From: a virus
Lineage: Duplodnaviria; Caudoviricetes
Length of the DNA stretch: 64,000 nt
Reading direction: 5' to 3' (one strand)
Virus record (IMG/VR): IMGVR_UViG_3300005739_000025
Position numbers and translations under genes: made by a program. The notes under the pieces are model-generated. The model was not told where the DNA came from, ran no database searches, and saw only the letters and a program-made list of their open reading frames with translations. This document shows, piece by piece, positions 5,995-63,656 of the stretch. Within the stretch, counting starts at the first letter, position 1. Every line of letters begins with the position of its first letter.

Positions 5995-7623
5995 TTAATT
6001 AATACGGTCAAAGAAATGCTCTGGCAACTTATACTTTACTCTTGGCAATACTTTAAATCCGTTACCGTCTAATATATAAGTGCTACTATAGTCTTGTTTA
6101 CTACGCGTGGCTCGACCACACATTTGCACCAATATATTAAGCATTTGATTTTCATACCAGTCCTTATCTATATCAAACAACTTTTTAATTCTCTTATTAC
6201 CAAGAGGTAAAAACGGTAACTTCACTATAATAGAAAATCTAGCTAAATCATCTCTTAAATCTACACCATGGGTCAATGAAGGACTTACTAGTACTGTAGG
6301 ATCCTTACTGTTATAGTGTTTATTGAGTATATCATCATTAACTGACATTTCATTACGAAATAAAAATCTTTTATCTTTTAAATGTTTTCTCAAAATATTT
6401 GTAATGTCCATGCTTTGTGTATGGATGATTCCTTTTTCGTTTTTGTATACATCACAAAGCTCAACTATTTGTTTTGCTATCTTTGGTAGGACTTTTTCTT
6501 TATTAGCATAGTTTATAGGGTTTGTGCTAGATATATAAATTGGACTTTGTTTAGGATCAAAATTACTTTTAGTTTCTATATACTCGTATTTGTTTATGCC
6601 GAGTGACTCAGCAAATTTCTTATGGTCTATGATTGTTGCTGACATTAGAACTATTTGATCCCCGTAATCAAATATATGTTTTGTGAGCGTGTTAACTTTT
6701 AATGGTGTAATACTAATTACACCCCTTTCTGGTTGATCAATAATCCATTCACAAGAGCTCCACTCATTGGTGCATGTGTTAATTTGAAGAAATAAAGTCT
6801 TCAACGTAGAGATTTTATTTTTTTCACCTAAAACTAAATTTGGATTTTTATTATAATCTTTAATGAGCTGTTCTATGTAATCGCTAATTGTCAGTGAGAG
6901 ATTTGTTAGCCAATCAAGCATATCTTTGTTTGTATATGATTTTGGGGATTTTACATCAATTCCAAGCTTATTGAGTTTTTTAAGATCTAGATATAAAGAA
7001 AACATTTTAACCATTTCATTCTCTAACTCTGAAGCTTCATCGCAAATTATATAATTTTTTCTCTTAACATGTCTCGGTAAATGTAAAAACATCTTATAGT
7101 TTAAGACTGTGTGTCTTGATATAAGAGCTACATTTCTACTATTATAGTAAGGACATCTGTTAGCTTTCCAGCAGTCCTCTTTTAGTCTGGGGGCCAGTAG
7201 ACAGGGTGCTGTATCAATAGTAGAGTTGTTATCGACTTCACATATATAATTTGTTTTACCTTTTAAAGTATTAATTTCATTAAATAATCCTTTATATTGA
7301 TCTTGTAAGCTTTTAGTTATTGTTAATGTAAAGCTACCAAAAGGTGGTTCATCTTCACATAATACTTGATTGGTATAATTACCTGAAAAGTCTTGTTTAA
7401 ACGCCTGATAGGATTCAATCAACTCTACAAATTTTTTAGTTGGATCGTTACTCGCATTAGCCAAAGTCATGGATAAAAAACTCTTACCGGTACCTGTTGG
7501 TGCTGATACTATTGCAAATTTGTTATTACTGGAAAAACATTCATCTACCCTTCTTATTATCTCTATTTGACTTGTGGAAGGCTCAAAGTCTTTAGGAAAA
7601 TAGTTAAGAAGCTTTTTTCGCAC
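5995..7623 (-). CDS. DinG/Rad3-family SF2 helicase
   Basis: Walker A APTGTGKS, DEAS motif II, MSAT motif III, GVDL, QMCGRATR motif VI. Confidence 0.85.
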   Translation of the reverse strand: MRKKLLNYFPKDFEPSTSQIEIIRRVDECFSSNNKFAIVSAPTGTGKSFLSMTLANASNDPTKKFVELIESYQAFKQDFSGNYTNQVLCEDEPPFGSFTLTITKSLQDQYKGLFNEINTLKGKTNYICEVDNNSTIDTAPCLLAPRLKEDCWKANRCPYYNSRNVALISRHTVLNYKMFLHLPRHVKRKNYIICDEASELENEMVKMFSLYLDLKKLNKLGIDVKSPKSYTNKDMLDWLTNLSLTISDYIEQLIKDYNKNPNLVLGEKNKISTLKTLFLQINTCTNEWSSCEWIIDQPERGVISITPLKVNTLTKHIFDYGDQIVLMSATIIDHKKFAESLGINKYEYIETKSNFDPKQSPIYISSTNPINYANKEKVLPKIAKQIVELCDVYKNEKGIIHTQSMDITNILRKHLKDKRFLFRNEMSVNDDILNKHYNSKDPTVLVSPSLTHGVDLRDDLARFSIIVKLPFLPLGNKRIKKLFDIDKDWYENQMLNILVQMCGRATRSKQDYSSTYILDGNGFKVLPRVKYKLPEHFFDRIN

Positions 7624-13213: not shown

Positions 13214-13242
13214 AAAGCCATTTTATAAATAACTAATAATAA

Positions 13243-40226: not shown

Positions 40227-40877
40227 ATGGTTTTTAACTATAAAAAGCTTTTTGAACAGCTATTAAAAGAAATTGATGTAAAAAATATAGGATTTTTTCC
40301 AGGCAAATTTAAACCACCCCATAAAGGTCATTTTAAAACAGCCTCTGTTGCAGCAAAACAAAACGATGTTGTTGTTGTTTTAATATCTGATAAAGAACAT
40401 GAAGGTTATACCGCGGAGAAATCTTTTAATATATGGTCAATATACAAAAAATATATACCAAACATTTTTCCCTATATAGTATCACCAACCCCCGTGCTAG
40501 CGTGTTATGATTTAGCCAATATCTTAAACAATGGAGAATATAAAGCTTCTCCTAAATCACCAACTATTAAATCAAACGCAAATGAAATAGTAGATAACGT
40601 TCAAGAGATTAAATCATACATTAATGTTGGAAATAATATAAATCTTAATCTTTATTCATCTCCAGAAGATCAAAGCAGATTTAAAAATATCTTAAAGGCT
40701 CCATATATGGGCAGAAGTATTATGAAAATAGAATTTAAACCTGTAGATAGACTAACAAGTGCTACCGCGTTCAGAACAGCGCTAAAAACTAAAAAAGGAA
40801 TTAATAATTTCCTTCCAAGTAACATATCTAACGACGATAAATTAAAAATTATAAATATATTAAATGATTCCGTTTAA
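40227..40877 (+). CDS. Cytidyltransferase-like (HIGH-motif) nucleotidyltransferase
   Basis: FPGKFKPPHKGH, TSATAFR. Confidence 0.75.
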   Translation: MVFNYKKLFEQLLKEIDVKNIGFFPGKFKPPHKGHFKTASVAAKQNDVVVVLISDKEHEGYTAEKSFNIWSIYKKYIPNIFPYIVSPTPVLACYDLANILNNGEYKASPKSPTIKSNANEIVDNVQEIKSYINVGNNINLNLYSSPEDQSRFKNILKAPYMGRSIMKIEFKPVDRLTSATAFRTALKTKKGINNFLPSNISNDDKLKIINILNDSV

Positions 40878-43471: not shown

Positions 43472-43883
43472 ATCTTAATGGCTTTTTACCAGCAGTAGGA
43501 GCTACAGGTTTTGAAGTAGGAGCAGGAGTAGATGTCGGTTGATTATAACCTGTTGCTGAAGGCGAACCAGGCTCACTTACTGATCCAGCTTGAAGGTTTA
43601 CTAAGTCAGGATTACTTTGAGCAGCTGCTGGAATACCCTTAATTTGTTTATAGATAGATAAAACATTACCATTTTGAAGTAATTGTTGCATAGCTTTTTT
43701 AACATCAGCACTTAAATTTGAACCTTGTACTAATGCTAATACTTGAGCAATATCTTTTCCTTCAACTTCTTGTTTAATTTGTCCTACAATATTTTGAACA
43801 TCGTCTTGTTGAACATTCTGCAAATTACTTTGCTCCTTAAGTGCTTTGTAGCTTTCAAAAATAAATTTACTGTCTCTATGCAT
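43461..43883 (-). CDS. Hypothetical late protein
   Basis: TATAAATA upstream; N-terminus MHRDSKFIFESYKALKE resembles a cleavable propeptide. Confidence 0.6.
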   Translation of the reverse strand: MHRDSKFIFESYKALKEQSNLQNVQQDDVQNIVGQIKQEVEGKDIAQVLALVQGSNLSADVKKAMQQLLQNGNVLSIYKQIKGIPAAAQSNPDLVNLQAGSVSEPGSPSATGYNQPTSTPAPTSKPVAPTAGKKPLRFSF

Positions 43884-50709: not shown

Positions 50710-51708
50710 TTAATCGTATCTAAATCTTATAGCTGCAATACCGTTTTGCCCATTATGAGGGCCATTATTTAAACCACTTCTCCAACCATTACCCCCACTT
50801 CCAGGAGCTGACGAACCCCCAGTTACATCACTTCCATAACCTCCTTGACAGATATAGCCTATTAAGCTACTATTTATTCCCGATCTAGGATTATAAGGAG
50901 CTCCCTCAAAGCCTCCAGGACCCCCTCCCCCTCCAGCCCATTGAGCTGAAGGGCTTGAAGTCGCTCCCCCACCTCTTCCTTCCCTTCCAGGAGAATTTCC
51001 CTCAGCTCCCCCTCCTCCATAATTACCTGAGGATCTACCCCCTCCTCCCCCGGACCCACCCCCTGTTCCTGAATTTCCGTTTTGCCCAGGTCTAACTGCA
51101 TTATCAGAAGATCCTCCTCCCCCACCTCCCCCTGCTGTTATTGAACCTCTAGAAGGGTTAGAAGTTATAAGAAAGGTTGTTTCACCCATAGACCCCCTAA
51201 CACTTTGACTTGTAGCTCTAGCCCCCCCTCTTCCGACATCAAATCTCCAAGTTTCTCCTGTAAAAGTTCGCCCTATATTACTTTCTACATACCCCCCGGC
51301 ACCCCCTCCACCACCATCCGTAGAAATTGTATTTCCTCTTCCTCCGCCCCCGCCTCCTGCGACTATTAAATAATCTATTTGTGTAAAACCTGTAATACCT
51401 GGATCTACAATTAATACATTACCTGAGCCAAATCCTGTATTACCAAATCTTACTGTTCTTCTTCCTGTGTTGCCAGCATTAGGATCCAAACCAGAGTCAG
51501 ATTCACTTGTTGATCCGGAATAGGATATTGTAGGGCATTTTGATTTACCAGCTAAATCACTTATTTTTATTGTTGTATCTGCTGTTGTTTTTCTTCCCAA
51601 TTCTCTAAATAAAGACTCATTAAAGTTCGCTTGAGCGTTTGATGTTCTGCCCAGATACGAATTAATCATAGACATTGATATAGGAACATTTGTATTAGGT
51701 AATGGCAT
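50710..51708 (-). CDS. Glycine-rich tail/receptor-binding-like protein
   Basis: Start reassigned to 51708 (MPLP...ISMS); YLIVAGGGGGG...GGGGAGG; GIAAIRF end. Confidence 0.7.
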   Translation of the reverse strand: MPLPNTNVPISMSMINSYLGRTSNAQANFNESLFRELGRKTTADTTIKISDLAGKSKCPTISYSGSTSESDSGLDPNAGNTGRRTVRFGNTGFGSGNVLIVDPGITGFTQIDYLIVAGGGGGGRGNTISTDGGGGGAGGYVESNIGRTFTGETWRFDVGRGGARATSQSVRGSMGETTFLITSNPSRGSITAGGGGGGGSSDNAVRPGQNGNSGTGGGSGGGGGRSSGNYGGGGAEGNSPGREGRGGGATSSPSAQWAGGGGGPGGFEGAPYNPRSGINSSLIGYICQGGYGSDVTGGSSAPGSGGNGWRSGLNNGPHNGQNGIAAIRFRYD

Positions 51709-51716
51709 AAAAGTAT

Positions 51717-52094
51717 TTATTTGATCCAACTAGCATCAAACACTTTCTCTCTCCCCTCTCGAATTGAATGAGAGAGTTGAGCTATTGAAGTAACATTATT
51801 TGTATATGCTCTTATTCTCCAAGATCCCATATTATCATAGGTAAAGAGCTGATTTTTTCCTGGAGGGTATAGATAGGCCACCATGGCATGTCCTCTTAAT
51901 TTACCTGTATCATTATCTTTCCAGGAATATCTAAATACTTCAGACCAAACACCATATTTGTTTAATGATTGTTTAAAAATAATGGCTGTAGGCAAGCAGG
52001 CATTTACTTCTCTCTCCATCCAATATTCGGGATTTTGGGGTGTAGTTTCGCATCCCGTTAACGCTAGAAGAATAAAAACCACCAAAATTTTCAT
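51717..52094 (-). CDS. Lipoprotein with Cys-His motif, similar to 24700-25113
   Basis: LTGC lipobox; NACLP...GHAMV...TYD. Confidence 0.55.
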   Translation of the reverse strand: MKILVVFILLALTGCETTPQNPEYWMEREVNACLPTAIIFKQSLNKYGVWSEVFRYSWKDNDTGKLRGHAMVAYLYPPGKNQLFTYDNMGSWRIRAYTNNVTSIAQLSHSIREGREKVFDASWIK

Positions 52095-52587
52095 AAAAAG
52101 TATTTATCGGAGTATAAATAAAAAAACATGATACTTGTAATATCTTGTTTAATTAGTTTTAGTATTGGCTTTTGTATAGGAAGAAAAAGCTTAAAGCTTA
52201 TTTTCTAGTTGCTTTATATGAAAAGATTTCTATACTTAAAGTATGGATATATCTTTCATGGTTTTAATTTTTACATCGCTCGTAGTTGTAGCAACATGTT
52301 CTTATTGGTGGGGTCACTTTTCAGCAGCAAAATGCAAAAAAAAGAAAAAATCAAAAAAGAAGAAAAAGTAGAAAATTTTTCTGTTAAAACTTTAATTCTT
52401 TTATCTACTCGTCTAGATGAGATAGTAGGTAAGTCTGAACTTATTAATGAGTTACTAGAAGAAGAAGATGACCCTAGACTAATAAAGCTTTTAGATAAAA
52501 AACTTACAAAGTTAGAAAACGAATTAGAATATATAGGAAACAAGATTAGAATAGAGCAAGAGATCATTAAAAACTCTAAATAATCTG

Positions 52588-53169
52588 ATGGAACAAGATC
52601 CTATAACAGGGTTAAAATATAAATTTGTAAAACCTAGCGAGTTCAATTACGCTTATCATGTAGCTGGATCTTTATTTTATAAGATATCAAAAGCGCCAGG
52701 CAATAACACATTTGTTTCTTTTAATGAAGTGCACCCCTCTAGAGATAAAGAATTGCAAGATATATTAAGAAAAGATTTAGGTTACGGTATTCATACAAAA
52801 GGGTTTAATACAACTAATCTTGGAGCTCAAGAGATTAAATCATTGGAAAATTCTAAAGACTGGAACAACTATTATGTAAAGAGTACTCAAGATCTAATAG
52901 ATAAAGGTTTTTTATCTAAAACAAATTATAAAAACCATGGGTGGTCTATTGTGTATCCAGATACCATTCAGACTATTGCACCTTCTGCTCCACCTTGGGT
53001 TAAGGATAAATTAAACATTCTAAAACAAGCTAGTAAAACAAAAATTAATAGAAATATTCTTTCAATGTTTTTAGAGCGTTTATGCGAATTTATGATGCTT
53101 CATGAAGCATGGACTAATTTAAGACCTAAAACGAAAGAAGTGTTTAAAGACATTTTATCTGAGCTATGA
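52588..53169 (+). CDS. Hypothetical protein with shared C-terminal tag
   Basis: ends LRPKTKEVFKDILSEL. Confidence 0.7.
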   Translation: MEQDPITGLKYKFVKPSEFNYAYHVAGSLFYKISKAPGNNTFVSFNEVHPSRDKELQDILRKDLGYGIHTKGFNTTNLGAQEIKSLENSKDWNNYYVKSTQDLIDKGFLSKTNYKNHGWSIVYPDTIQTIAPSAPPWVKDKLNILKQASKTKINRNILSMFLERLCEFMMLHEAWTNLRPKTKEVFKDILSEL

Positions 53170-53579
53170 AACAGAAAGCGCCAAAGATGGAACTTATTCC
53201 AATTACGTCTGAGAACTACGAAAGAGTTTCTTGGCCAGCGCCTCATGGTACATCTTTTAAATTAACAAAAGATAAAAAATATGGAGTTACAAAGTTTACA
53301 GAGATGGGTCCTCTCGGTAAAGATTATATGCTAAAAAACGGGTACAGAAGAATATATTACTTTGATGGAGATGATGTATTAAAGTACTATGTCTATAATT
53401 CTATTCCCCTACCCCACCCCATTGATGCTAAAACAATGTATGAAATTGTTGATAAAAATACCGTTCCTAAAGCTTTAAGAAACGAAATTATGATTGCGTA
53501 TGTTATAGATAACTTAGGAAGACTTCTAAAGCCTAAAACTAGAGAGCATTTTGGGGATATTTTTAGCGAATTATCTTGA
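53166..53579 (+). CDS. Hypothetical protein with shared C-terminal tag
   Basis: ends LKPKTREHFGDIFSELS. Confidence 0.7.
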   Translation: MKQKAPKMELIPITSENYERVSWPAPHGTSFKLTKDKKYGVTKFTEMGPLGKDYMLKNGYRRIYYFDGDDVLKYYVYNSIPLPHPIDAKTMYEIVDKNTVPKALRNEIMIAYVIDNLGRLLKPKTREHFGDIFSELS

Positions 53580-54554
53580 CTAAATTCTGGGTTCCTTCAT
53601 AATAGGCACAATGAAAGATTACCTTTTATTGTTTATTGAATGTGTCTACCATCTTTTTAATGATAATAGACCCTTTAAAAAGAAAATTGAGCCATCATTA
53701 TTGGCAGAAAATATCTCATGGTTTAATAATTGTTCTTGGATCGAACAATTGATTGCATTTAAACAAATTTCCCGTTATTATACTTTTAAATGACATACGA
53801 AGAACAAATAGAACAGGTGCAAAGCGCTCTCAATTATCTCATTGCAGAGGGTATTGCTGTAGAAGATGGAAAAGGTCTCTATAGGCTTAAAACTGATAAA
53901 GAACTTAAACTAGAAATAGAGAGTCTTATTAATGAGTAATAAAGAAAAGATTATTAGAATTGGTACCTGGTTAACTATTTTTACTTTTTCTGTTGCCTTT
54001 TGGGTAGTTATAACTTATTATTCTTATCACTTTGTAAGAAATCTTATAATGTCTAACTAATATGAATAAAGAAACAATCGATTTGTTCAAACAATACGTG
54101 GTAGCAACATTAGATGAGCCTAACGGTATTTCTAAAGAAGCATATTCTTCGCTAATTAACCTTATGCAAGTTAATAGAGATTTTGCTCAAGAAATGCATG
54201 ATGTTGTAGATAAAATTGACTCACATGATAATAGATACTTCCTATTGGAAGATAACGAAGAGGAGTTTTCTTACGAGGAATGATCAAGCTTTCAAATATT
54301 AATGAGGTAGCAGATAAGCTAAAAGAACTTAAAGAGGCTGTTGCTGTTTGCCAGAAAATAGAAGATCAAGTTTCGTGGGCTTGTGACTTTACAACTTATA
54401 GAACTATATCTGATGCCTTAGAGCCTATTTATGAGGCTGTAGATAGTGCAAAAGATTCAATTAATCAAGAAATAAATTATATTGAAGATCGTTTAGAAGA
54501 TTACAAGTGCAAACTTGATATTTTTGAACACGAAAATAAGATAGAAGTAAACGA

Positions 54555-55634
54555 TTGAGTATATGTCTTAACATGATTGTTAAGGATGAATCTAAAAACA
54601 TCCTTAGATGTTTAGATTCAGTCTCACCCTATATAAACTATTGGGTAATTTGCGATACAGGTTCAAGCGATAATACAGTTGAAACTATTAAGAACTACTT
54701 TAACCAGAAAAATATTCCAGGAGAGATTCATGGTCATGGTTGGGTAAATTTTGGAGTTAATAGAAATTTAGCTTTAGAGTTAGCAAAAGATAAAGCGGAT
54801 TATATATTGCTTTGTGATGCTGATATGGAAATGGTAGTTAATCAACCAGATTTCTTTTCTAATATTAATAGCTATGGTTTTGATGAAGCTACTATTATTC
54901 AGGAATCTGATCATTTATCATATCACAACATAAGAATTGTAAGCGGTAAGAAAGATTTCAATTATGTTGGTCCTACTCATGAGTATATAACCGCTAAATT
55001 CAAAGATGTAAACAGATTAGATATAGATAAATCTGTACTATATTTCAAGGATCATGCTTCAGGATTTAATAGAACAAACAAATTTCAAAGAGACATAGAG
55101 TTGTTGGAAAACGAGCTGCTAAAGTTTCCATCCAATCAAAGATATAGATTTTACCTGGCCCAAAGCTACAGAGATAACAACGATAAAGATAACGCCATTG
55201 CCAATTACAAAAAGGTTCTTTATTGTAATGGCTATGTTCAAGAGAAGTACATATCTTGTTTAAATTTAGGTAGATTATATAAAGATAAAGGAGAAAAAGA
55301 ATTAGCAGTCTTTTACTACTTAAAATCTATAGAGTTTGATAGTTCTAGAATAGAGTGTATGGTAGAGGCTACAACTATTCTTAGAGAATTAAATCAACAT
55401 AATTTGGTTTGTTTGCTCTATGATAGATATAAAAATTACTCTAAAAATATACAGCACGCATTATTTCTAGAGCCAAAACTATATAATAACGAGCTTGAAT
55501 TTAATTTTTCAATTTCAGCCTTTTATGTTAATAGAAAGGAAGAAGGTTTACAAGCTATTAAAAAAATACTTGAATCTCCAGATAGTTCAGATCATATTAG
55601 ATTTTTAAGTGAAAAAAACTTGAAATTTTTTTAA
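54555..55634 (+). CDS. Family-2 glycosyltransferase with TPR repeats
   Basis: ICLNMIVKDE, ICDTGSSD, W.NFG.NRN, DAD, HEY, FYLAQSY. Confidence 0.9.
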   Translation: MSICLNMIVKDESKNILRCLDSVSPYINYWVICDTGSSDNTVETIKNYFNQKNIPGEIHGHGWVNFGVNRNLALELAKDKADYILLCDADMEMVVNQPDFFSNINSYGFDEATIIQESDHLSYHNIRIVSGKKDFNYVGPTHEYITAKFKDVNRLDIDKSVLYFKDHASGFNRTNKFQRDIELLENELLKFPSNQRYRFYLAQSYRDNNDKDNAIANYKKVLYCNGYVQEKYISCLNLGRLYKDKGEKELAVFYYLKSIEFDSSRIECMVEATTILRELNQHNLVCLLYDRYKNYSKNIQHALFLEPKLYNNELEFNFSISAFYVNRKEEGLQAIKKILESPDSSDHIRFLSEKNLKFF

Positions 55635-55677
55635 AATTTTAGTTGAGGTTCCTTAGAAAGACTATATATTAATAGAA

Positions 55678-56063
55678 GTTCTTTGACATTTAAGGGGGTA
55701 GCAGATAGCCGGTTGAGTCGTGCACTGCTTTAAACTGATCTTGACTCGATCAAGCCTTCTTAACAACGGTAAGGTATGGTGTTTAACGTCCCTAACAAAA
55801 TGTATCACCTTATAAATGGTATGCGAACTCTACCACTCTTAAGATCTAAAGAGTCTTCACAGTAAGATAAGCCGCAACAGGCTAAAAAATAGAGCGTGTC
55901 GGTTCTAGGTAAGTACCAAGCCGAAGACTATAGATGGTCAAAAACCTATGTAAAATACGGTTAGGTGTTCTTCGAGTGAGTGTATAAAAATATGCTAGGC
56001 ATTACTCACTCGATACCAGATAAGGCGCAACTTAATCTGGTCCGAAGTGCGATAAAAACACCC
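55678..56063 (+). ncRNA. Large (~370-nt) unassigned structured ncRNA with its own promoter and boxA-like leader
   Basis: No ORF; many stems, e.g. TCGAGTGAGT/ACTCACTCGA, ACCAGAT/ATCTGGT, GGTGTT/AACACC, AGCC/GGCT. Confidence 0.65.
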
Positions 56064-57213
56064 AATTTTCCATGCATAGATTAGCTTATTCAATTCTAGC
56101 GTTTTTATTTGGATTCTGGTTATGTGAATTCATAATTAGTTTATTCTTGAAGAAAGATAAAATTCCTTTAGAATAAGAATATGAAAGTAAAACCAGCTTA
56201 CATGTCATTAATGATTTCCTTTGCACTATTTGCTATTTTAGTCTATCTTGTTAGTAGACTTTAATATGACTCAGGAAGAAAAAATATATCAACTTCGCGC
56301 TCTTCTCTCTTACATTAATATGAGAGTAGGGGAGTTTTATAGTATGGGACTCTACAATAACAACCCGACTAGAAAAGAACTATTCTTTATTCTTAAAGAT
56401 ATAAAAAAAACATTAGAACAGACAAGTAATTAATTGCATTTTTATTAAAGTTCCTACATACTTTTAACAATGAAAGAGCTAAACAAATTAAGGGAAGAAG
56501 TAGCTGATCAAGAATTACATAAATATGATTTTTATGGGTACGTAGAGGATTCCAGTAATTGGGTAAAAGATGGAGATGTGTGGTCCTGTAAGGTCTATCT
56601 TGAAAATGAAGATGAGTATGAAGAAGAGGGAACTACTATTCCTTATTCCTTTACAGTATTTTTCGAAGAAGGTACCACCGAGGTTGAGTCTGTAGAATCA
56701 GAGTGTTTAGCTTAATGGCAAAATATAAAAAAGATTTTCAAACTATAATCTACAAAGGTTATAAAATAGAACAAGTTATTAATCACAATCCTTATCTTTT
56801 CTATGGAGGATATGGTTATCCTGAGAATCACCCTAAGCGTAGATATATGAAACCTATATACGCTGTTCAATGGGCTGATAAGAAGGAAGGTTATTGTTAC
56901 GAAACATACTACTATACTTCTTTAGTTGCCGCAAAGAGAATGATAAATTTTACTGTTAATCGCAATAAGGTCCCTGCATAATATTAACAATGACGAAATA
57001 CGATATTAATTCCCAAGTGGAAGAGTACTTTGGTACATTTGCTGCTGAACCTGCTAATGAAGACATGGTCAGTCTTAGCAGCTATTCTATTGAAGAATAC
57101 GAAGAGTATATTTCAAAAGAATCCCAAGAAAATAGTGAAATTTAATTTAGTTGCTGTTCCTATAAGGTTCCTGTACAATATTTACATAATCAAGAAAGGA
57201 GGTGAAACAAATA

Positions 57214-57546
57214 ATGGAAAACGTTATCAAAGTCGAGCGTAAGAACGGTAAGATCGTTCGTCAGACCGAAGGTAAACGCCGTGGACGCCCTAGTGGTTCT
57301 GGCAACCCTTCGCTTAAGTTGACCTGCTTGGTCACGGGTAAGTCCCGTGCTACCAATCAGAAGTATCTCCAGGCTAAGGCTGATCGTTTGGGCGTTACTG
57401 TTGACGAAATCGTTAACAACTATGTCTCTAAGGACGGTCTCAAGCAGATGGATACTTTCAATCACGCTAACAAAGAGTTGCTACGTCGTATCAATGGTGG
57501 AACTCGCATTAGCTCTGAGAAGGTCGCTGTTGCTAAAGCTGCTTAA
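57214..57546 (+). CDS. AT-hook DNA-binding early protein
   Basis: SD AAGGAGGTGA; KRRGRPS; host-like codon usage. Confidence 0.65.
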   Translation: MENVIKVERKNGKIVRQTEGKRRGRPSGSGNPSLKLTCLVTGKSRATNQKYLQAKADRLGVTVDEIVNNYVSKDGLKQMDTFNHANKELLRRINGGTRISSEKVAVAKAA

Positions 57547-58045
57547 TCAATAGAGCGTCTCCAGTTCAATCCTGCAGACGCTTCTATCTTATGAAAAAAC
57601 AAATTCAAAAACAATTAAAGTTTGCTTCTAAACTCTTACAAGAAATTTCCCGGGAACATAAAAAGGGAAACTACTATAGGTTTGGTTATTTGGCATATGA
57701 TGTTCAATTAAAAGAGTACGAAAGACTTAAAGCATTATATGAAAAGCATCGCTAGTATTCTTTGTTTACTGATTACTGGTTGTGCTACCAATCCAGTAGG
57801 AGCGGGATTTCAAAAAGAGTTTCCTTATAAATTTAGACCATATCCTGAATCTCCAGACATTTATAATTTCTCTCTTAATAATATTATCGATTTAACTCCA
57901 TACATATGGTTCCCACAAAAAGATACGCCTATATTTTCACCATTTTAATATTAGTGGTTCTAGTATCGTGTTGCTCAATAAATAATTCAAATAACAACAT
58001 GGACAAAGAGGTCCGTAAGATGTTTGAATTTATTGAACGACCACT

Positions 58046-58402
58046 ATGCGAAAAGAAGCCTTCGTTAAAAGATTAGAAAGCGGAAGACTAGTTTTTAGTT
58101 TTTACCCTCCTTTAAAAGACCTAGGAGGTAATCATTATTTTGATAAGCTTATCGTTGATTTAAACGATAAAAAGGTATATAAAGAGCTAGGAAAAACCAA
58201 AGTAGGTTATTTTTCTGAAGCTAGAGTTATAGAAGACGATGGAAGCGTGGGTAGATCTCTACTTCAAATAACTCATAGTACCCCATTTTCCTTTCAAGAG
58301 TTTGTAGATTTTCTACCTAAAGTTAAAGGTGAATATAAAGTTGTAGAGCTTAAACCTAAGACCGAAGAACACTTCGGAGATATATTGAGAGGACTATCGT
58401 AA
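58046..58402 (+). CDS. Hypothetical protein with shared C-terminal tag
   Basis: ends LKPKTEEHFGDILRGLS. Confidence 0.7.
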   Translation: MRKEAFVKRLESGRLVFSFYPPLKDLGGNHYFDKLIVDLNDKKVYKELGKTKVGYFSEARVIEDDGSVGRSLLQITHSTPFSFQEFVDFLPKVKGEYKVVELKPKTEEHFGDILRGLS

Positions 58403-58803
58403 TGAAACTTAAAGGAAAAGCATATTTTGTAAAAAAATTCTCAAATAATATATTTGGAAGCGATGAAGCTGATAGAATTATAAAATCTTCCAAAAATGTT
58501 AAAGGTAAAAGAAATATAGCACTCTATAAAGTATCTCCCCCCATTAAAGGACATCAATATGTTGTAGTTAGTAGTGTTAAAATAGAGATACCTATGAACA
58601 AAAAAGAAAGTCATATTATTCAAGAGACAATGGTATTTTTTTCTAATCATAAAGGGGATGTGGAATTTGGTCAAGAGTTTAAAACCTTTTACGGCTTCTT
58701 ACCCCATGATAAAGTGTTAATGGATATCGGCTATGAGCTTGTAGAGTTTAAGCTTAAACCAGAAACAGAAAAATATTTTGGAGACATTTTAAGAGAACTA
58801 TGA
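58402..58803 (+). CDS. Hypothetical protein with shared C-terminal tag
   Basis: ends LKPETEKYFGDILREL. Confidence 0.7.
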   Translation: MKLKGKAYFVKKFSNNIFGSDEADRIIKSSKNVKGKRNIALYKVSPPIKGHQYVVVSSVKIEIPMNKKESHIIQETMVFFSNHKGDVEFGQEFKTFYGFLPHDKVLMDIGYELVEFKLKPETEKYFGDILREL

Positions 58804-59222
58804 GTAAAAAATTAGAAGATGGTTATTTTTTAGACGATGGAAGAACGGGTATTGTTTATAAACCTATAAAATTAGGAGATTATGATGTATTTTTTAGTAA
58901 CGGTCTATTTTTTACTTTAGTAAAAGATGAAATAGTTACAGGTTACAAGTTTTACTCGTTAATGCACATAACCGCAAAAAAACATGGATTAAGTATAAAG
59001 TCTGTTCCAAAATGGCCCAAAGAAACGTTAATGTGGGGTCATGACTTTTTAAATAAGTTTGATCAAAATTTACCATATTTGTGTATAGTTAAACCTTGGA
59101 CGGTTCCGAGAAAATATTTTGATACAGGAGCTGCTCAATACTATAGTTTATACAAAAAGCCTTCTAAATTAATGAAACCTAAAACAAGAAAACATTTCGG
59201 AGACATAATAGATAATTTATGA
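58800..59222 (+). CDS. Hypothetical protein with shared C-terminal tag
   Basis: ends MKPKTRKHFGDIIDNL. Confidence 0.7.
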   Translation: MSKKLEDGYFLDDGRTGIVYKPIKLGDYDVFFSNGLFFTLVKDEIVTGYKFYSLMHITAKKHGLSIKSVPKWPKETLMWGHDFLNKFDQNLPYLCIVKPWTVPRKYFDTGAAQYYSLYKKPSKLMKPKTRKHFGDIIDNL

Positions 59223-59332
59223 GTGATAAAGTAGAAGAGATTAAAGAAGCTATTTCTAAACTAACTATTGAAGAGGTAAATGAATTAGCCGAAAAGCTAA
59301 AAGATATACTTAAACTAGATGAAGACATTTAA
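59219..59332 (+). CDS. 37-aa peptide resembling the N-terminal dimerisation domain of ribosomal protein bL12
   Basis: MSDKVEEIKEAISKLTIEEVNELAEKLKDILKLDEDI; ATGA overlaps on both sides. Confidence 0.6.
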   Translation: MSDKVEEIKEAISKLTIEEVNELAEKLKDILKLDEDI

Positions 59333-59780
59333 GACATTTATAACCGAGAATGTGATACAAATGAGTGCTACTAGAGCTACTAAAGAGTATCCTTTTGTTT
59401 CTGAGCTAGACGATCAAAGTATAAAAGAGCTTTTATTAATTAGAAAGCCTGAAGACATTAAATCGGTATCTCTTGAAGCTATGTGGATGGATGATAGTGT
59501 AGAGTGTTACGGTATTATATTAAATGGAGTAGTTATGGGATTGTGGTGGTACGGACCTCATATTAAGGGATATCTACAAAAATTTAACGATAAACTAGAC
59601 GCTAAGAACAGAGCATTTCTACAAAAAGAAGTATTTGAAATTTTAGAAAATGAAAAACAGAGAATATACGATGAAGCAGGAGATGAAAGATTAGATAGAA
59701 TAGAAAAAGAAATAGAAATGCTTGATAAAATGAAACCTAAAACAAAAGAGTATTTCTATGACATAATGAAAGAACTATGA
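59319..59780 (+). CDS. Hypothetical protein with N-terminal MKTFKTFITE propeptide and shared C-terminal tag
   Basis: ends MKPKTKEYFYDIMKEL. Confidence 0.7.
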   Translation: MKTFKTFITENVIQMSATRATKEYPFVSELDDQSIKELLLIRKPEDIKSVSLEAMWMDDSVECYGIILNGVVMGLWWYGPHIKGYLQKFNDKLDAKNRAFLQKEVFEILENEKQRIYDEAGDERLDRIEKEIEMLDKMKPKTKEYFYDIMKEL

Positions 59781-60223
59781 CAAGAGGTAAAGCTATTTTA
59801 ATTAAAGATCTTACCCCTAGAAGTAAGGAAGATTTTCAAAGAGTGGTAAAAAGTGTTCCTAGATTTGATTATCTTTTTAGTAAGTTTGAGGGTCTTAATA
59901 TAGATCATATGGAGCTTAAAGTGTATAAGCTTAACCCAAAGCTATTTGTTGATAATGTTATTAAAGATTGTGAATATGTATTAATAGCTACAATATTCAT
60001 ATCAAAACATAATGAAAACAGATACAAGTATGAGTATAAAGAATCATCTGTTTATAAGAGTAATAAAAATGGAAAGATTTTAAACACCGATGAAATTTAT
60101 ATGACCCATAGAAACACTGATCATGAAGATGTGTTAAATGATATGGGAAGAGAGTGGTATGATCTAATAAAGCTTAAGCCTAAAACATCAGAACACTTTG
60201 GAGATATATTAATGAATATATGA
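59777..60223 (+). CDS. Hypothetical protein with shared C-terminal tag
   Basis: ends LKPKTSEHFGDILMNI. Confidence 0.7.
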   Translation: MTRGKAILIKDLTPRSKEDFQRVVKSVPRFDYLFSKFEGLNIDHMELKVYKLNPKLFVDNVIKDCEYVLIATIFISKHNENRYKYEYKESSVYKSNKNGKILNTDEIYMTHRNTDHEDVLNDMGREWYDLIKLKPKTSEHFGDILMNI

Positions 60224-60651
60224 ACAAATACTTTCAAGCTTTAAATAGGGGTTGGGACGTAGATGAAGATTCAGGGTTTAAATTTAAACATATAAATCCT
60301 TATGAATATGACATGATATATTTTCCATATATTCAAGGTTTTTATAAAATTATAAAGAATAAAAAATTTAAAATGTCTTTCGAGCCTCCTTGGTTTATAG
60401 CGCCTGTTAAGCTTTCTGAATCTTTATTAAATGATGCTAAAAAATGGGAAAAAGCTCATTTAATTCTTCTTAGAGAAATTAACCCAGATACGTTATGGGA
60501 GGATCTTTATATGATAGCTGATAAGTCAAGCACCCCCAACCATTTAAAATCTCAAATACTATCTGCTTCTTTACGTCCTAACTTTATAAAAAGAATGAAG
60601 CCAGAGACTCAAAAACATTTTAAAGATATTTTTATAGGATTAGAAGATTAG
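60220..60651 (+). CDS. Hypothetical protein with shared C-terminal tag
   Basis: ends MKPETQKHFKDIFIGLED. Confidence 0.7.
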   Translation: MNKYFQALNRGWDVDEDSGFKFKHINPYEYDMIYFPYIQGFYKIIKNKKFKMSFEPPWFIAPVKLSESLLNDAKKWEKAHLILLREINPDTLWEDLYMIADKSSTPNHLKSQILSASLRPNFIKRMKPETQKHFKDIFIGLED

Positions 60652-62041
60652 ATCAAGTATTCTATAAAGTCTAGGAACATCAAGCTTAAAATGATAGTTG
60701 ATAAAATTTAGAGTTCCTTTATACTTCTATTAAATCTACAGATCTAATAGCGGGGTTGCTCTATTAGCTCCCCCGCACGCTAATAGATACACATACACAT
60801 ATACGATATAACATTATGCACGTTAACGGATACATGCCTTACGTTGGAATAACGGCCAGTGATATGATTAAAAAACTGGATATACATTTTGTCTCTACAA
60901 AGGATGGATTAATGAAGGTAGATGAGTCTACCAAAGAGTTCAATCCAGTAAATAATTATGAACGGAAACTGTACTATCAGTCCGAGTGGGAAAAGAACGG
61001 ATACAGAGTATATTGATACTCTCTATTGCGATTGTAAGATAGAAGATATTAATAGAGCTTTAGATGAGCTTGATAACTATCTTGGCATCAATCCATTTGC
61101 TACTATAAGTAAAATAAATAGAGACAAGCTTAATAATGTTCTAGATAAAATGTATGAAACCCACGGACGACTCAAACAAAGATTATACAGTTGATTGGTT
61201 AAAATCTAAAGAAGATTTTCCAAAATGGCTTTCTAAGATTTTCTGCTCTAAAGAGTATGAGCTCCGTATGCAGGCCCTCAAAAGAATTAATTCTGAGAGT
61301 ATGAACGTGGATGTAGAGAAGAATTAAGTCTGAACAAACCCTATACCTTACTCTTAATTGATTGTAAATTTTTAATCTAGGAACCTCAACACCATAAATA
61401 ATATGGTGATCAAGATGTATGAGGTTACCGTTAAAGGTAGTTGGGGCTCAAGGAGTTACACAGTAGGTAAAATAGAGAAGGATTTGTTAGTACGTGTATT
61501 TAAAGGTGTTACAAAAGTGAAAGAAATAGAGTTGCCGGATCAGGAAAAAGCCTCCATAATTCCTGGTGATGAATAAGAGAAACACATTCGAAGAAGCCAT
61601 GACAGCTTATAGGCTTCGTTCAGATCAAATGCGCGGTATTCTCCGTAGAATTGCTTCTGCAAGATTAGTTAATGGGGGAGCTGAGGAGGTTGGATCCTCA
61701 GACATCAACCATGAACTCCATGCTATGTATAATGAGTATGGAGGAGATTTCGACGCCATTCTACTTGATTCTCTCTCTGAGTATGCAGCCTGAAACAGCT
61801 ATTGAAAACTTAGGAACGATCTTTGCTTATGACGCCGATGGGTATGAAATCTGCGTTGGAGATTATGTATCCCATAATAGGAAGCTCTATAGAGTGCAAA
61901 AGCTTAAGTGGGATGTTTCCGGTGATGGACTTTATCGTGAGACTGTTTACCTAGAGCTCATACACGTCAAATCAACAAGGATTAAAATTGTTGAGGACAA
62001 AGATGTTGAGCTCCTCAACTAGTTCCGGCATAATAAGGACA

Positions 62042-62596: not shown

Positions 62597-63088
62597 ATGA
62601 ACATCAAAGAAGAATTGAAATTGTTGAAGGCTACTGGACGGCTCTCTACCCACCCGCACATTCATTGTTGTAAGTGTAATGGGAAGACCACGGCTTTTGG
62701 CACTAATCTGCAGGGCAAGATTCAGAAAGCCGGTGGATTAGAAGAACTTCTATCAACTTTTGAGTGTAGAAGTTGTAGAAACGCTGGAAAACCAGTCATC
62801 GTAAAAGTAAATACTGGGATGAAGAAAAAGCGTAAACCCAAGGAGCTCAGGACTTCTGAGCTTTTGAAGAATCCACCAAAGATGAACTTTTCCCCGCGGG
62901 CCCGCTTGAGTCTCTTAGAGCATCCAGAGATTACAGCTGAGTTGACGTCTGTGGCTTGTGTTCGTCCTGATATTTATCTAGATTCTGAACGCACATGTGA
63001 TTACTGCAACCTTTATCAATTGTGCAAAGCACCTTGCCGGAAGCTCTCCAAACATGGATGGCAGGTTAAGGAGCTAATAAATGCATAG
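62597..63088 (+). CDS. Cys-rich zinc-finger early protein
   Basis: CCKC, CRSC, CxxxxxxxxxxxxCDYC..YQLC. Confidence 0.6.
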   Translation: MNIKEELKLLKATGRLSTHPHIHCCKCNGKTTAFGTNLQGKIQKAGGLEELLSTFECRSCRNAGKPVIVKVNTGMKKKRKPKELRTSELLKNPPKMNFSPRARLSLLEHPEITAELTSVACVRPDIYLDSERTCDYCNLYQLCKAPCRKLSKHGWQVKELINA

Positions 63089-63656
63089 AACTATTATTCT
63101 TATTGGACCAGAGGGGGTAGGGAAGTCCTCGGTAAGTGATATATTATCCAAAAGACTTAATTTACCTATGGCCTTCTCTGACTATTTTGTCAGGACAAGG
63201 ATCAACGAATCAAAGAAATTCTCTACCTTAAAAGCCCTATATTATCGTCTAGTCAAAGGCTTCTGGACTTTTTACAAATACATAAAGCCTTTTGAGGCTG
63301 ATGTTGTTGTAGAGGTATTGAATAAGACAAAGAATGGGATTATTGATTTTGGTGCCGGGCATTCTGTTTTTGACGACGAAAAGCTGTTTGATAGGGTAAA
63401 AAAAGCCTTTGAGCCCCATAGATTTGTTTTTTTACTACTACCATCCCCGGACTTAGACAAATCAATTAAAATACTAAATGATGCCAATCCTCACCTCTTA
63501 AAAATCAAACCAAACATAACCGAACACTTTATTAAGAGCAAGTGTAATTACGAATTGGCCAAATATGTTATATACACCAAAGACAAGCTTTTTGATAAAG
63601 TAGCCCAAGAGATCATAGACATCATTCTTAAAGAGGAACGCAAAAAAGAGGAATAG
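63081..63656 (+). CDS. Shikimate-kinase-like P-loop kinase
   Basis: LIGPEGVGKSSV...LS.RL...SD, IIDFGAGH. Confidence 0.75.
   Translation: MHRTIILIGPEGVGKSSVSDILSKRLNLPMAFSDYFVRTRINESKKFSTLKALYYRLVKGFWTFYKYIKPFEADVVVEVLNKTKNGIIDFGAGHSVFDDEKLFDRVKKAFEPHRFVFLLLPSPDLDKSIKILNDANPHLLKIKPNITEHFIKSKCNYELAKYVIYTKDKLFDKVAQEIIDIILKEERKKEE

Follow-up and report, generated by a model that had tools for sequence, protein, structure and literature searches.

Eight small proteins encoded by a tailed phage end in a common 16-residue peptide, referred to here as the tag, which, judged from sequence, behaves as a portable element on diverse protein bodies. The phage is an uncultured, T4-like giant (jumbo) phage, and the stretch of 64,000 nt that was analyzed (IMGVR_UViG_3300005739_000025) is called the window throughout. 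The tag appears tied to a context of T4-type head-protein processing, a connection supported by cut-type sites that follow internal copies of the tag, by N-terminal leaders resembling the capsid-targeting sequence (CTS) of T4, and by a late-promoter-like signal.

A regular expression for the core motif, applied to all six frames of the window, gave exactly eight matches, each starting 14-16 residues ahead of a stop codon and ending 0-2 residues from it, in agreement with the original prediction, made from the letters alone, that eight open reading frames (ORFs) share a C-terminal tag. The shared end of the eight proteins is (L/M)(K/R)P(K/E)Txx(H/Y/V)Fx-D-I-Φ-x-x-(L/I), where Φ is a hydrophobic residue, and the 16-residue consensus of the tag is [L/M]-K-P-[K/E]-T-x-[K/E]-H-F-G-D-I-Φ-x-x-L. 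A hidden Markov model (HMM) of the tag scored the eight proteins at 26-38 bits, with the next best protein of the window at 3 bits.

The claim that selection acts on the peptide and not on a repeat of the DNA is borne out by the codons. Among the eight window tags each invariant column (Pro, Thr, Phe, Asp, and Ile) is encoded by two to four kinds of codon (all four for Thr), the differing codon pairs comprise 140 synonymous and 182 non-synonymous ones, and the mean nucleotide identity over the 48-nt tag stretch is 65%. Since invariant residues are written with varied codons and synonymous differences are many, selection on the peptide is indicated, and codon usage rules out an origin of the tag as a DNA repeat. 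Over a wider set of 161 copies in 105 proteins, column conservation is 91% for K, 83% for P, 93% for T, 88% for H, 99% for F, 82% for G, 84% for D, 93% for I, and 84% for L. The tag has the anatomy of a self-capped amphipathic helix, in which F, I, Φ, and L line up as a hydrophobic stripe, K-P-x-T is the N-cap, and the C-cap is often G-L. Binding of the tag Asp at the metal ion-dependent adhesion site (MIDAS) of a von Willebrand factor A (vWA) domain was also considered and is weakened by the replacement of this Asp with G, N, K, or H in approximately 16% of copies.

Tagged genes of the window

All eight genes lie on the plus strand, in two clusters. In the first, o52588 (52588-53169, 193 aa) is a stand-alone protein whose tag (53119-53166, RPKTKEVFKDILSEL) is the most divergent copy, while the start codon of o53166 (53166-53579, 137 aa; tag 53526-53573; orthologues P0005, P0006, and P0009) overlaps the preceding stop (ATGA). 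The second cluster (58046-60651) opens with o58046 (58046-58402, 118 aa; tag 58349-58396), which has an orthologue in the sister phage L003, followed by o58402 (58402-58803, 133 aa; tag 58753-58800) and o58800 (58800-59222, 140 aa; tag 59172-59219). Next come o59319 (59319-59780, 153 aa; tag 59730-59777), which starts with the CTS-like leader MKTFKTFITE/N (59319-59348; here and below the slash marks the candidate cut), o59777 (59777-60223, 148 aa; tag 60173-60220), and o60220 (60220-60651, 143 aa), whose tag (60595-60642) is followed by ED. At four junctions the last Leu or Ile codon of a tagged gene, together with its TGA stop, makes the ATG of the next gene, which couples the two in translation.

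Two smaller observations touch these genes. An ORF of 37 aa (59219-59332, plus strand) bridges o58800 and o59319, overlapping both. Its match to the dimerisation domain of ribosomal L7/L12 (PF16320; E 1e-4) scores 22.3 bits and thus stays below the cut-off of 25; in sister phage L003 nothing but a gap of 55 nt is present at this place, so the bridging ORF is not conserved with the tag. A P-loop kinase-like protein (63081-63656, plus strand) contains an internal KIKPNITEHF that resembles the first half of the tag and is most likely a chance likeness, since the tag HMM gives it no score.

Extent of the tagged set

The eight proteins are only part of the tagged set. To the right of the window, contig L027 is identical to it from position 60712 onward (0 mismatches over 3,289 nt), and L029, which spans extended window coordinates 67,714-81,149, overlaps L027 without mismatch over 3,979 nt. 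L027 and L029 carry 15 further tags, at approximately 68-81 kb in extended window coordinates (7-17 kb downstream), on eight minus-strand proteins of 146, 180, 200, 236, 317, 364, 397, and 530 aa. Because the two contigs continue the window without mismatch, this genome carries at least 23 tags on 16 proteins. The same arrangement was found on the related contigs L001/L002, L003/L004, and L014/L016/L023.

A profile of 30 columns built from 64 copies was searched against 1.84 billion representative proteins (E <= 1e-3) and yielded 69 proteins. Three of these contain no copy recognised by the tag HMM and were taken as false, leaving 66 genuine tagged representatives, all of them metagenomic. The wider set of 161 copies on 105 proteins comes from one small clade of T4-like jumbo phages, all uncultured. 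The tag was not found in IMG/VR, and a pattern scan of Joint Genome Institute (JGI) data gave 20 loci, of which three were genuine and the others chance matches of high GC content. Among deposited phages no tag was found, and tblastn with o59777 and with the four-tag protein P0015 returned no match even at E <= 10. Likewise, megablast found no close deposited relative of the window; its proteins recur on metagenomic contigs of up to 244 kb, and a search of sequencing runs pointed to one lagoon metagenome, with a small share of words.

Relatedness, fold, and turnover of the tagged bodies

When the tagged proteins were cut at their tags, 176 modules were obtained (median 124 aa, interquartile range 106-143 aa), forming 45 BLAST families. 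HHalign comparisons between 24 families and two singletons gave no pair above 35% probability. Searches of Pfam and PHROGs assigned no family to any of the eight window proteins and essentially nothing to the 69 tagged proteins scanned.

The original description of the eight bodies as showing no visible similarity holds in part. It stands for o58046 and o59319, which match no other of the eight, and for o52588 and o53166 there are faint links only, to the group of o58800 and o60220 (HHalign probability 10-21%). It does not stand for o58402 and o59777, which are full-length paralogues (BLASTP 4e-5 with the tags removed; 22 invariant columns across 8 family members), nor for the more distant pair o58800 and o60220. 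The latter can be aligned along its whole length with the first module (module 1) of a 279-aa two-module protein of L003 (25% identity), and this same module is 49% identical to o58800; as both match it, the two are regarded as distant full-length paralogues. Full-length paralogy, which had been named as the finding that would speak against a shared label, was thus seen in two pairs and not across the set as a whole.

The AlphaFold2 (AF2) model of o59777, made from its family alignment, has a predicted local distance difference test (pLDDT) score of 75 and a predicted template modelling score of 0.72. Residues 1-130 form a compact, confidently modelled α/β domain, and pLDDT falls below 50 only at residues 132-138, which form a linker (K-L-K-P-K-T-S), and at 145-148; a short helix stands apart at 141-146. 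Since only stretches of the tag region fall below this value, the tag is best seen as an appendage outside the o59777 fold. Fold searches with this model against PDB, BFVD, and AFDB clusters returned nothing significant, and the best VIA-align matches were cystatin/NTF2-like rolls (Z ~5, under the noise guide of the tool), from which no function was drawn. Two other models were unusable, namely a single-sequence AF2 model of the 530-aa four-module polyprotein (pLDDT 36), which shows only a helix at each tag, and the ESM Atlas model of o52588 (pLDDT 0.37).

Comparison of this genome with L001 separates the pace of the two parts. The AAA_5 ATPase is 80% identical between the two phages and the tags are 68% identical; tagged bodies that have a counterpart average 39% identity to it, and six of 14 lack one. 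By these comparisons, the putative cargo bodies turn over fast while the tag is kept.

Polyproteins, cut-type sites, and leaders

Across the clade, 82 of the 161 copies lie within three residues of a stop codon and the remaining 79 are internal, sitting between the modules of polyproteins that contain up to five tags. Glu occupies the second position after 57 of the 79 internal tags, against a background of 8%; with the final Leu of the tag and whatever residue stands between them, this Glu makes a Φ-x-E site. The residue after Φ-x-E is most often Ser, five more internal copies are followed by NFNE (five sources scored), and Φ-x-E after an internal tag recurs across many families. The stand-alone o58800 has an orthologue in L003 (49% identity) that is fused to a second module, where the tag is internal and is followed by SLTE/S.

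Two units consist of little besides the tag. The 397-aa protein of L029 starts (7201-7320, plus strand of the contig) with a leader that is followed almost directly by a tag and LNE/S, and in P0012 (residues 152-190) a spacer of 21 aa separates two tags. If cut, such units would release peptides scarcely larger than the tag.

Leaders ending in Φ-x-E were found, by a crude definition, on about 40% of the tagged proteins (39 of 105) compared with 8 of 62 untagged window ORFs. They are of three types: MKTFKSFITE/S, which includes the leader of o59319 and is closely similar to the T4 CTS (MKTYQEFIAE; PMC8442874); MGFYKTANALLE/S; and MDKQSKLIFE/S. In T4, the prohead protease gp21 cuts after L/I-X-E, and the first ten residues of internal protein (IP) III are enough for targeting to the head (PMC9026906). 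The leader of o59319, the only T4 CTS-like leader among the eight window proteins, is kept in the orthologues P0010, P0011, P0043, and P0069. This head-type propeptide had been taken to favour effectors delivered by the virion; for o59319 the leader is there, while for the other seven proteins the argument draws on the tag they share with leader-bearing relatives and not on features of their own. Leaders also occur apart from tags. Three untagged window proteins have CTS-like leaders, at 43883 (minus strand), 40227 (plus strand), and 22845 (plus strand), beginning MHRDSKFIFESY, MVFNYKKLFEQLLKE, and MNFEILINDLL, and the protein at 40227 has a weak cytidylyltransferase-like match. In L029 (10001-11685, plus strand of the contig, corresponding to ~69.5-71.1 kb of the extended window, minus strand), the products of three adjoining untagged genes start alike, with M(N/K)FD..V..LLE(N/Q), a variant of the leader.

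Expression signals

A T4 late-promoter-like TATAAATA (52113-52120, plus strand) heads the run 52128-53579 that holds o52588 and o53166, and o52588 is preceded by a signal of its own at 52577, consisting of TAAATA, 5 nt, and ATG. The same TATAAATA or TAAATA lies 5-11 nt ahead of the ATG of many genes, including tail-fibre and portal-adjacent genes; other (A)TAAATA examples across the window are at 13226, 14905, 40852, 43894 (minus strand), 4923 (minus strand), and 39871 (minus strand). TAAATA-type signals head several tagged operons in L029 and L001 as well. If (A)TAAATA marks late promoters of the T4 type, the transcripts would begin with little or no leader. Scans for σ70-type promoters and for terminators between 51.5 and 61.5 kb gave nothing above chance. 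A conserved intergenic motif of 28 nt (GTTCCTnCATAnT...ACAATGA) precedes three small ORFs and extends into their start codons (53591-53618, 56450-56477, and 56970-56997, all plus strand). Its first copy overlaps a σ70-like site (TTGACT-16-CATAAT), and the motif may be an early or middle promoter of this phage.

Proposed role of the tag and its alternatives

The original prediction read the tag as an address label. Its portability among diverse bodies, and its detachment from the body in one model, agree with such a reading, under which it may be a packaging signal, an ejection signal, or a means of docking to a hub. The overall picture put forward here, held at about even confidence, is that of cargo units of the head interior that, once mature, always bear the tag at their end, with the tag docking to one shared partner. 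The tagged proteins would be head-internal, IP-like cargo, and their leaders would carry them to the prohead core. A T4-type prohead protease would remove the leaders and cut the polyproteins after each tag, and because it would cut there, every mature unit, whether stand-alone or released, would end in the tag. The shared partner would most likely be a component of the prohead or of the virion interior, and the seven leaderless window proteins would either rely on the tag itself or act unpackaged.

That the tag is itself a capsid-loading address within this picture is a tentative proposal, with the chances leaning against it. No firmer is the idea, drawn from analogy with encapsulin cargo-loading peptides, that it could be a second capsid-cargo address, C-terminal and retained, in which polyproteins built like beads on a string would be cut by the head protease so that every bead ended in the address, allowing modular loading of a changing injected arsenal.

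Several points weigh against the picture of docked head cargo. A leader is lacking on seven of the eight window proteins. No late-promoter-like signal precedes the second window cluster (58046-60651), and for this reason its genes may be early or middle genes that act in the cell. Genes for a prohead protease (gp21 homologue), a scaffold, and a capsid protein were not found in the window or in the linked loci examined, and no binding partner of the tag was found. Φ-x-E after the tag could reflect a habit of helix caps or linkers and not a cut site. The tag copies include orthologues and paralogues and are not independent, which inflates p-values, and a usable structure model is available for one body family only (o59777). 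Finally, if the polyproteins are already loaded by way of their leaders, there seems little need for a second loading tag.

Among the alternatives, the one that survives best, although unlikely, is that the tag is a recognition element (exosite) for an enzyme that cuts just downstream, either the prohead protease or a vWA-metallopeptidase working with a MoxR ATPase, terminal copies then being remnants of a once-fused module. The cut-type site two residues past 57 of the 79 internal copies would fit, as would the genes that flank the tagged array. In L001 the gene order is vWA-metallopeptidase (DUF2201_N/VWA), the MoxR-type AAA_5 ATPase, two small genes, and tagged genes, with type-3 leaders (MDKQSKLIFE/S) at the start of both enzymes; in this genome AAA_5, two small genes, and tagged genes follow in that order. 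Moreover, a role of this enzyme pair in virion-protein processing has been predicted (Iyer et al. 2021, PMC7824862). The shared order is nevertheless weak evidence because the two phages are close relatives, as the identity of their AAA_5 proteins indicates, and the vWA-metallopeptidase is present in 427 deposited phages, none of which has the tag. The 82 terminal copies have nothing after them to be cut, yet they are conserved as well as the internal ones. A complex prediction of the L001 vWA-metallopeptidase with the tag-LxE-tag segment of P0012 (score 0.00, partner pLDDT 34) is evidence neither way.

Action in the infected cell, where the tag would dock injected or newly made modules to a single host structure (a hub protein, for example, or the membrane), is also judged improbable. 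The lack of leaders on seven window proteins and of a late-type signal ahead of the second cluster would be expected of it, the bodies evolve like arms-race effectors, and the tag is an amphipathic helix with basic residues at its N-terminal end. Plain lipid binding is, however, difficult to reconcile with the strong conservation of the polar P, T, H, G, and D, no host protein is known with the motif, and an exhaustive search found the tag in phage-like proteins only.

It is quite improbable that the tag has no address function and is simply the last helix, and the slowest-evolving structural element, of one old and very divergent paralogue family. The uniform size of the modules and the paralogy among some of the eight are what such a family would give, and shallow alignments limit the power of HHalign; on the other hand, the 24 families and two singletons show no profile-level link, the tag is the sole low-confidence, non-packed part of the o59777 model, and tag-only mini-units exist in the 397-aa protein of L029 and in P0012. 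That the tag is a degron, recognised at the C-terminus by a protease of the host or of the phage, was one of the options first proposed and is very improbable despite the extreme C-terminal position of 82 copies, because stand-alone proteins end in ...L whereas processed units would end in ...L-x-E, so that the free ends would differ, because the tag also functions internally, where it is equally conserved, and because it is unlike the known ssrA-type ends.

Other features of the window

The window encodes a portal of the T4 gp20 type (phrog_213, 5e-104) that is ~30% identical to portals from T4-like cyanophages and from Klebsiella phages, together with tail-fibre genes, a helicase, and 21 tRNA genes. 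Beside the tag clusters lies a gene for a glycine-rich-domain protein (50710-51729, minus strand; PF21722, 6e-11), and between the two clusters one for a family-2 glycosyltransferase fused to tetratricopeptide (TPR) repeats (54555-55634, plus strand).

Comparison with known systems

The original prediction knew of no described system of this form. The motif string of the tag was indeed not found by literature search; the concept of a short peptide common to diverse phage cargo, however, has precedents in the T4 CTS, polyvalent proteins, and encapsulin peptides. One close likeness is to T4, where the CTS on the gp21-processed internal proteins IPI-III and Alt is likewise a short conserved peptide on diverse, fast-evolving small proteins. 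The L/I-x-E cleavage rule of T4 (PMC9026906) is matched by Φ-x-E here, and o59319 and many relatives have a leader like MKTYQEFIAE (PMC8442874). At the T-even internal-protein locus there is a similarly quick turnover of cargo with the label retained (PMC3012670). There are differences as well: the T4 CTS is N-terminal and removed, whereas the tag is C-terminal, probably retained, present alongside CTS-like leaders, and used to punctuate polyproteins, and T4 internal proteins are single units, whereas tagged modules also occur in polyproteins.

Polyvalent proteins of phages and conjugative elements combine unrelated modules in one polypeptide, are thought to be packaged, cut, and delivered, and are associated with a zincin-like metallopeptidase (Iyer et al. 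2017, PMC5512222). They carry known conflict domains (2-15 per polypeptide), often with the peptidase in the chain. Here, in contrast, the eight window proteins are single modules, their multi-module relatives are without Pfam or PHROG domains, the peptidase has a gene of its own, and every module bears one conserved end-tag, a feature not described for polyvalent proteins. The encapsulin cargo-loading peptide is a short C-terminal peptide on unrelated cargo that is sufficient for loading into an HK97-fold shell (PMC7355545). Encapsulin loading peptides differ in sequence from the tag, and no shell-type gene lies near the tag clusters. The HK97 protease is also said to have a C-terminal targeting signal.

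The pair of MoxR AAA+ ATPase and vWA-metallopeptidase was described in T4-like 'group 2.2' jumbo phages (Iyer et al. 2021, PMC7824862); in L001 its two genes lie beside the tagged array, and in this genome AAA_5, at least, does too. Since the pair occurs without the tag in hundreds of deposited phages, the tag is a clade-specific addition. The clamp-binding C-terminal peptides of T4 replication and transcription proteins (DNA polymerase, gp33, gp55) offer a further comparison, and no polymerase, sigma factor, or other known domain was found among the 69 tagged proteins scanned.

New, and not described in the literature found, are the tag itself, its C-terminal and probably retained position, and its use as polyprotein punctuation beside separate N-terminal leaders. 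Even apart from mechanism, it is a clean sequence marker for such cargo in metagenomes. Should the tag serve for loading or docking, it would define the full set of proteins that this clade packs or sends to one site, and the dozens of fast-evolving modules would be good candidates for anti-defence or host-takeover factors. A portable tag of 16 residues with a built-in protease site could also help to load foreign proteins into T4-type capsids. The tag would then be a C-terminal, retained counterpart to the N-terminal, removed CTS of T4.

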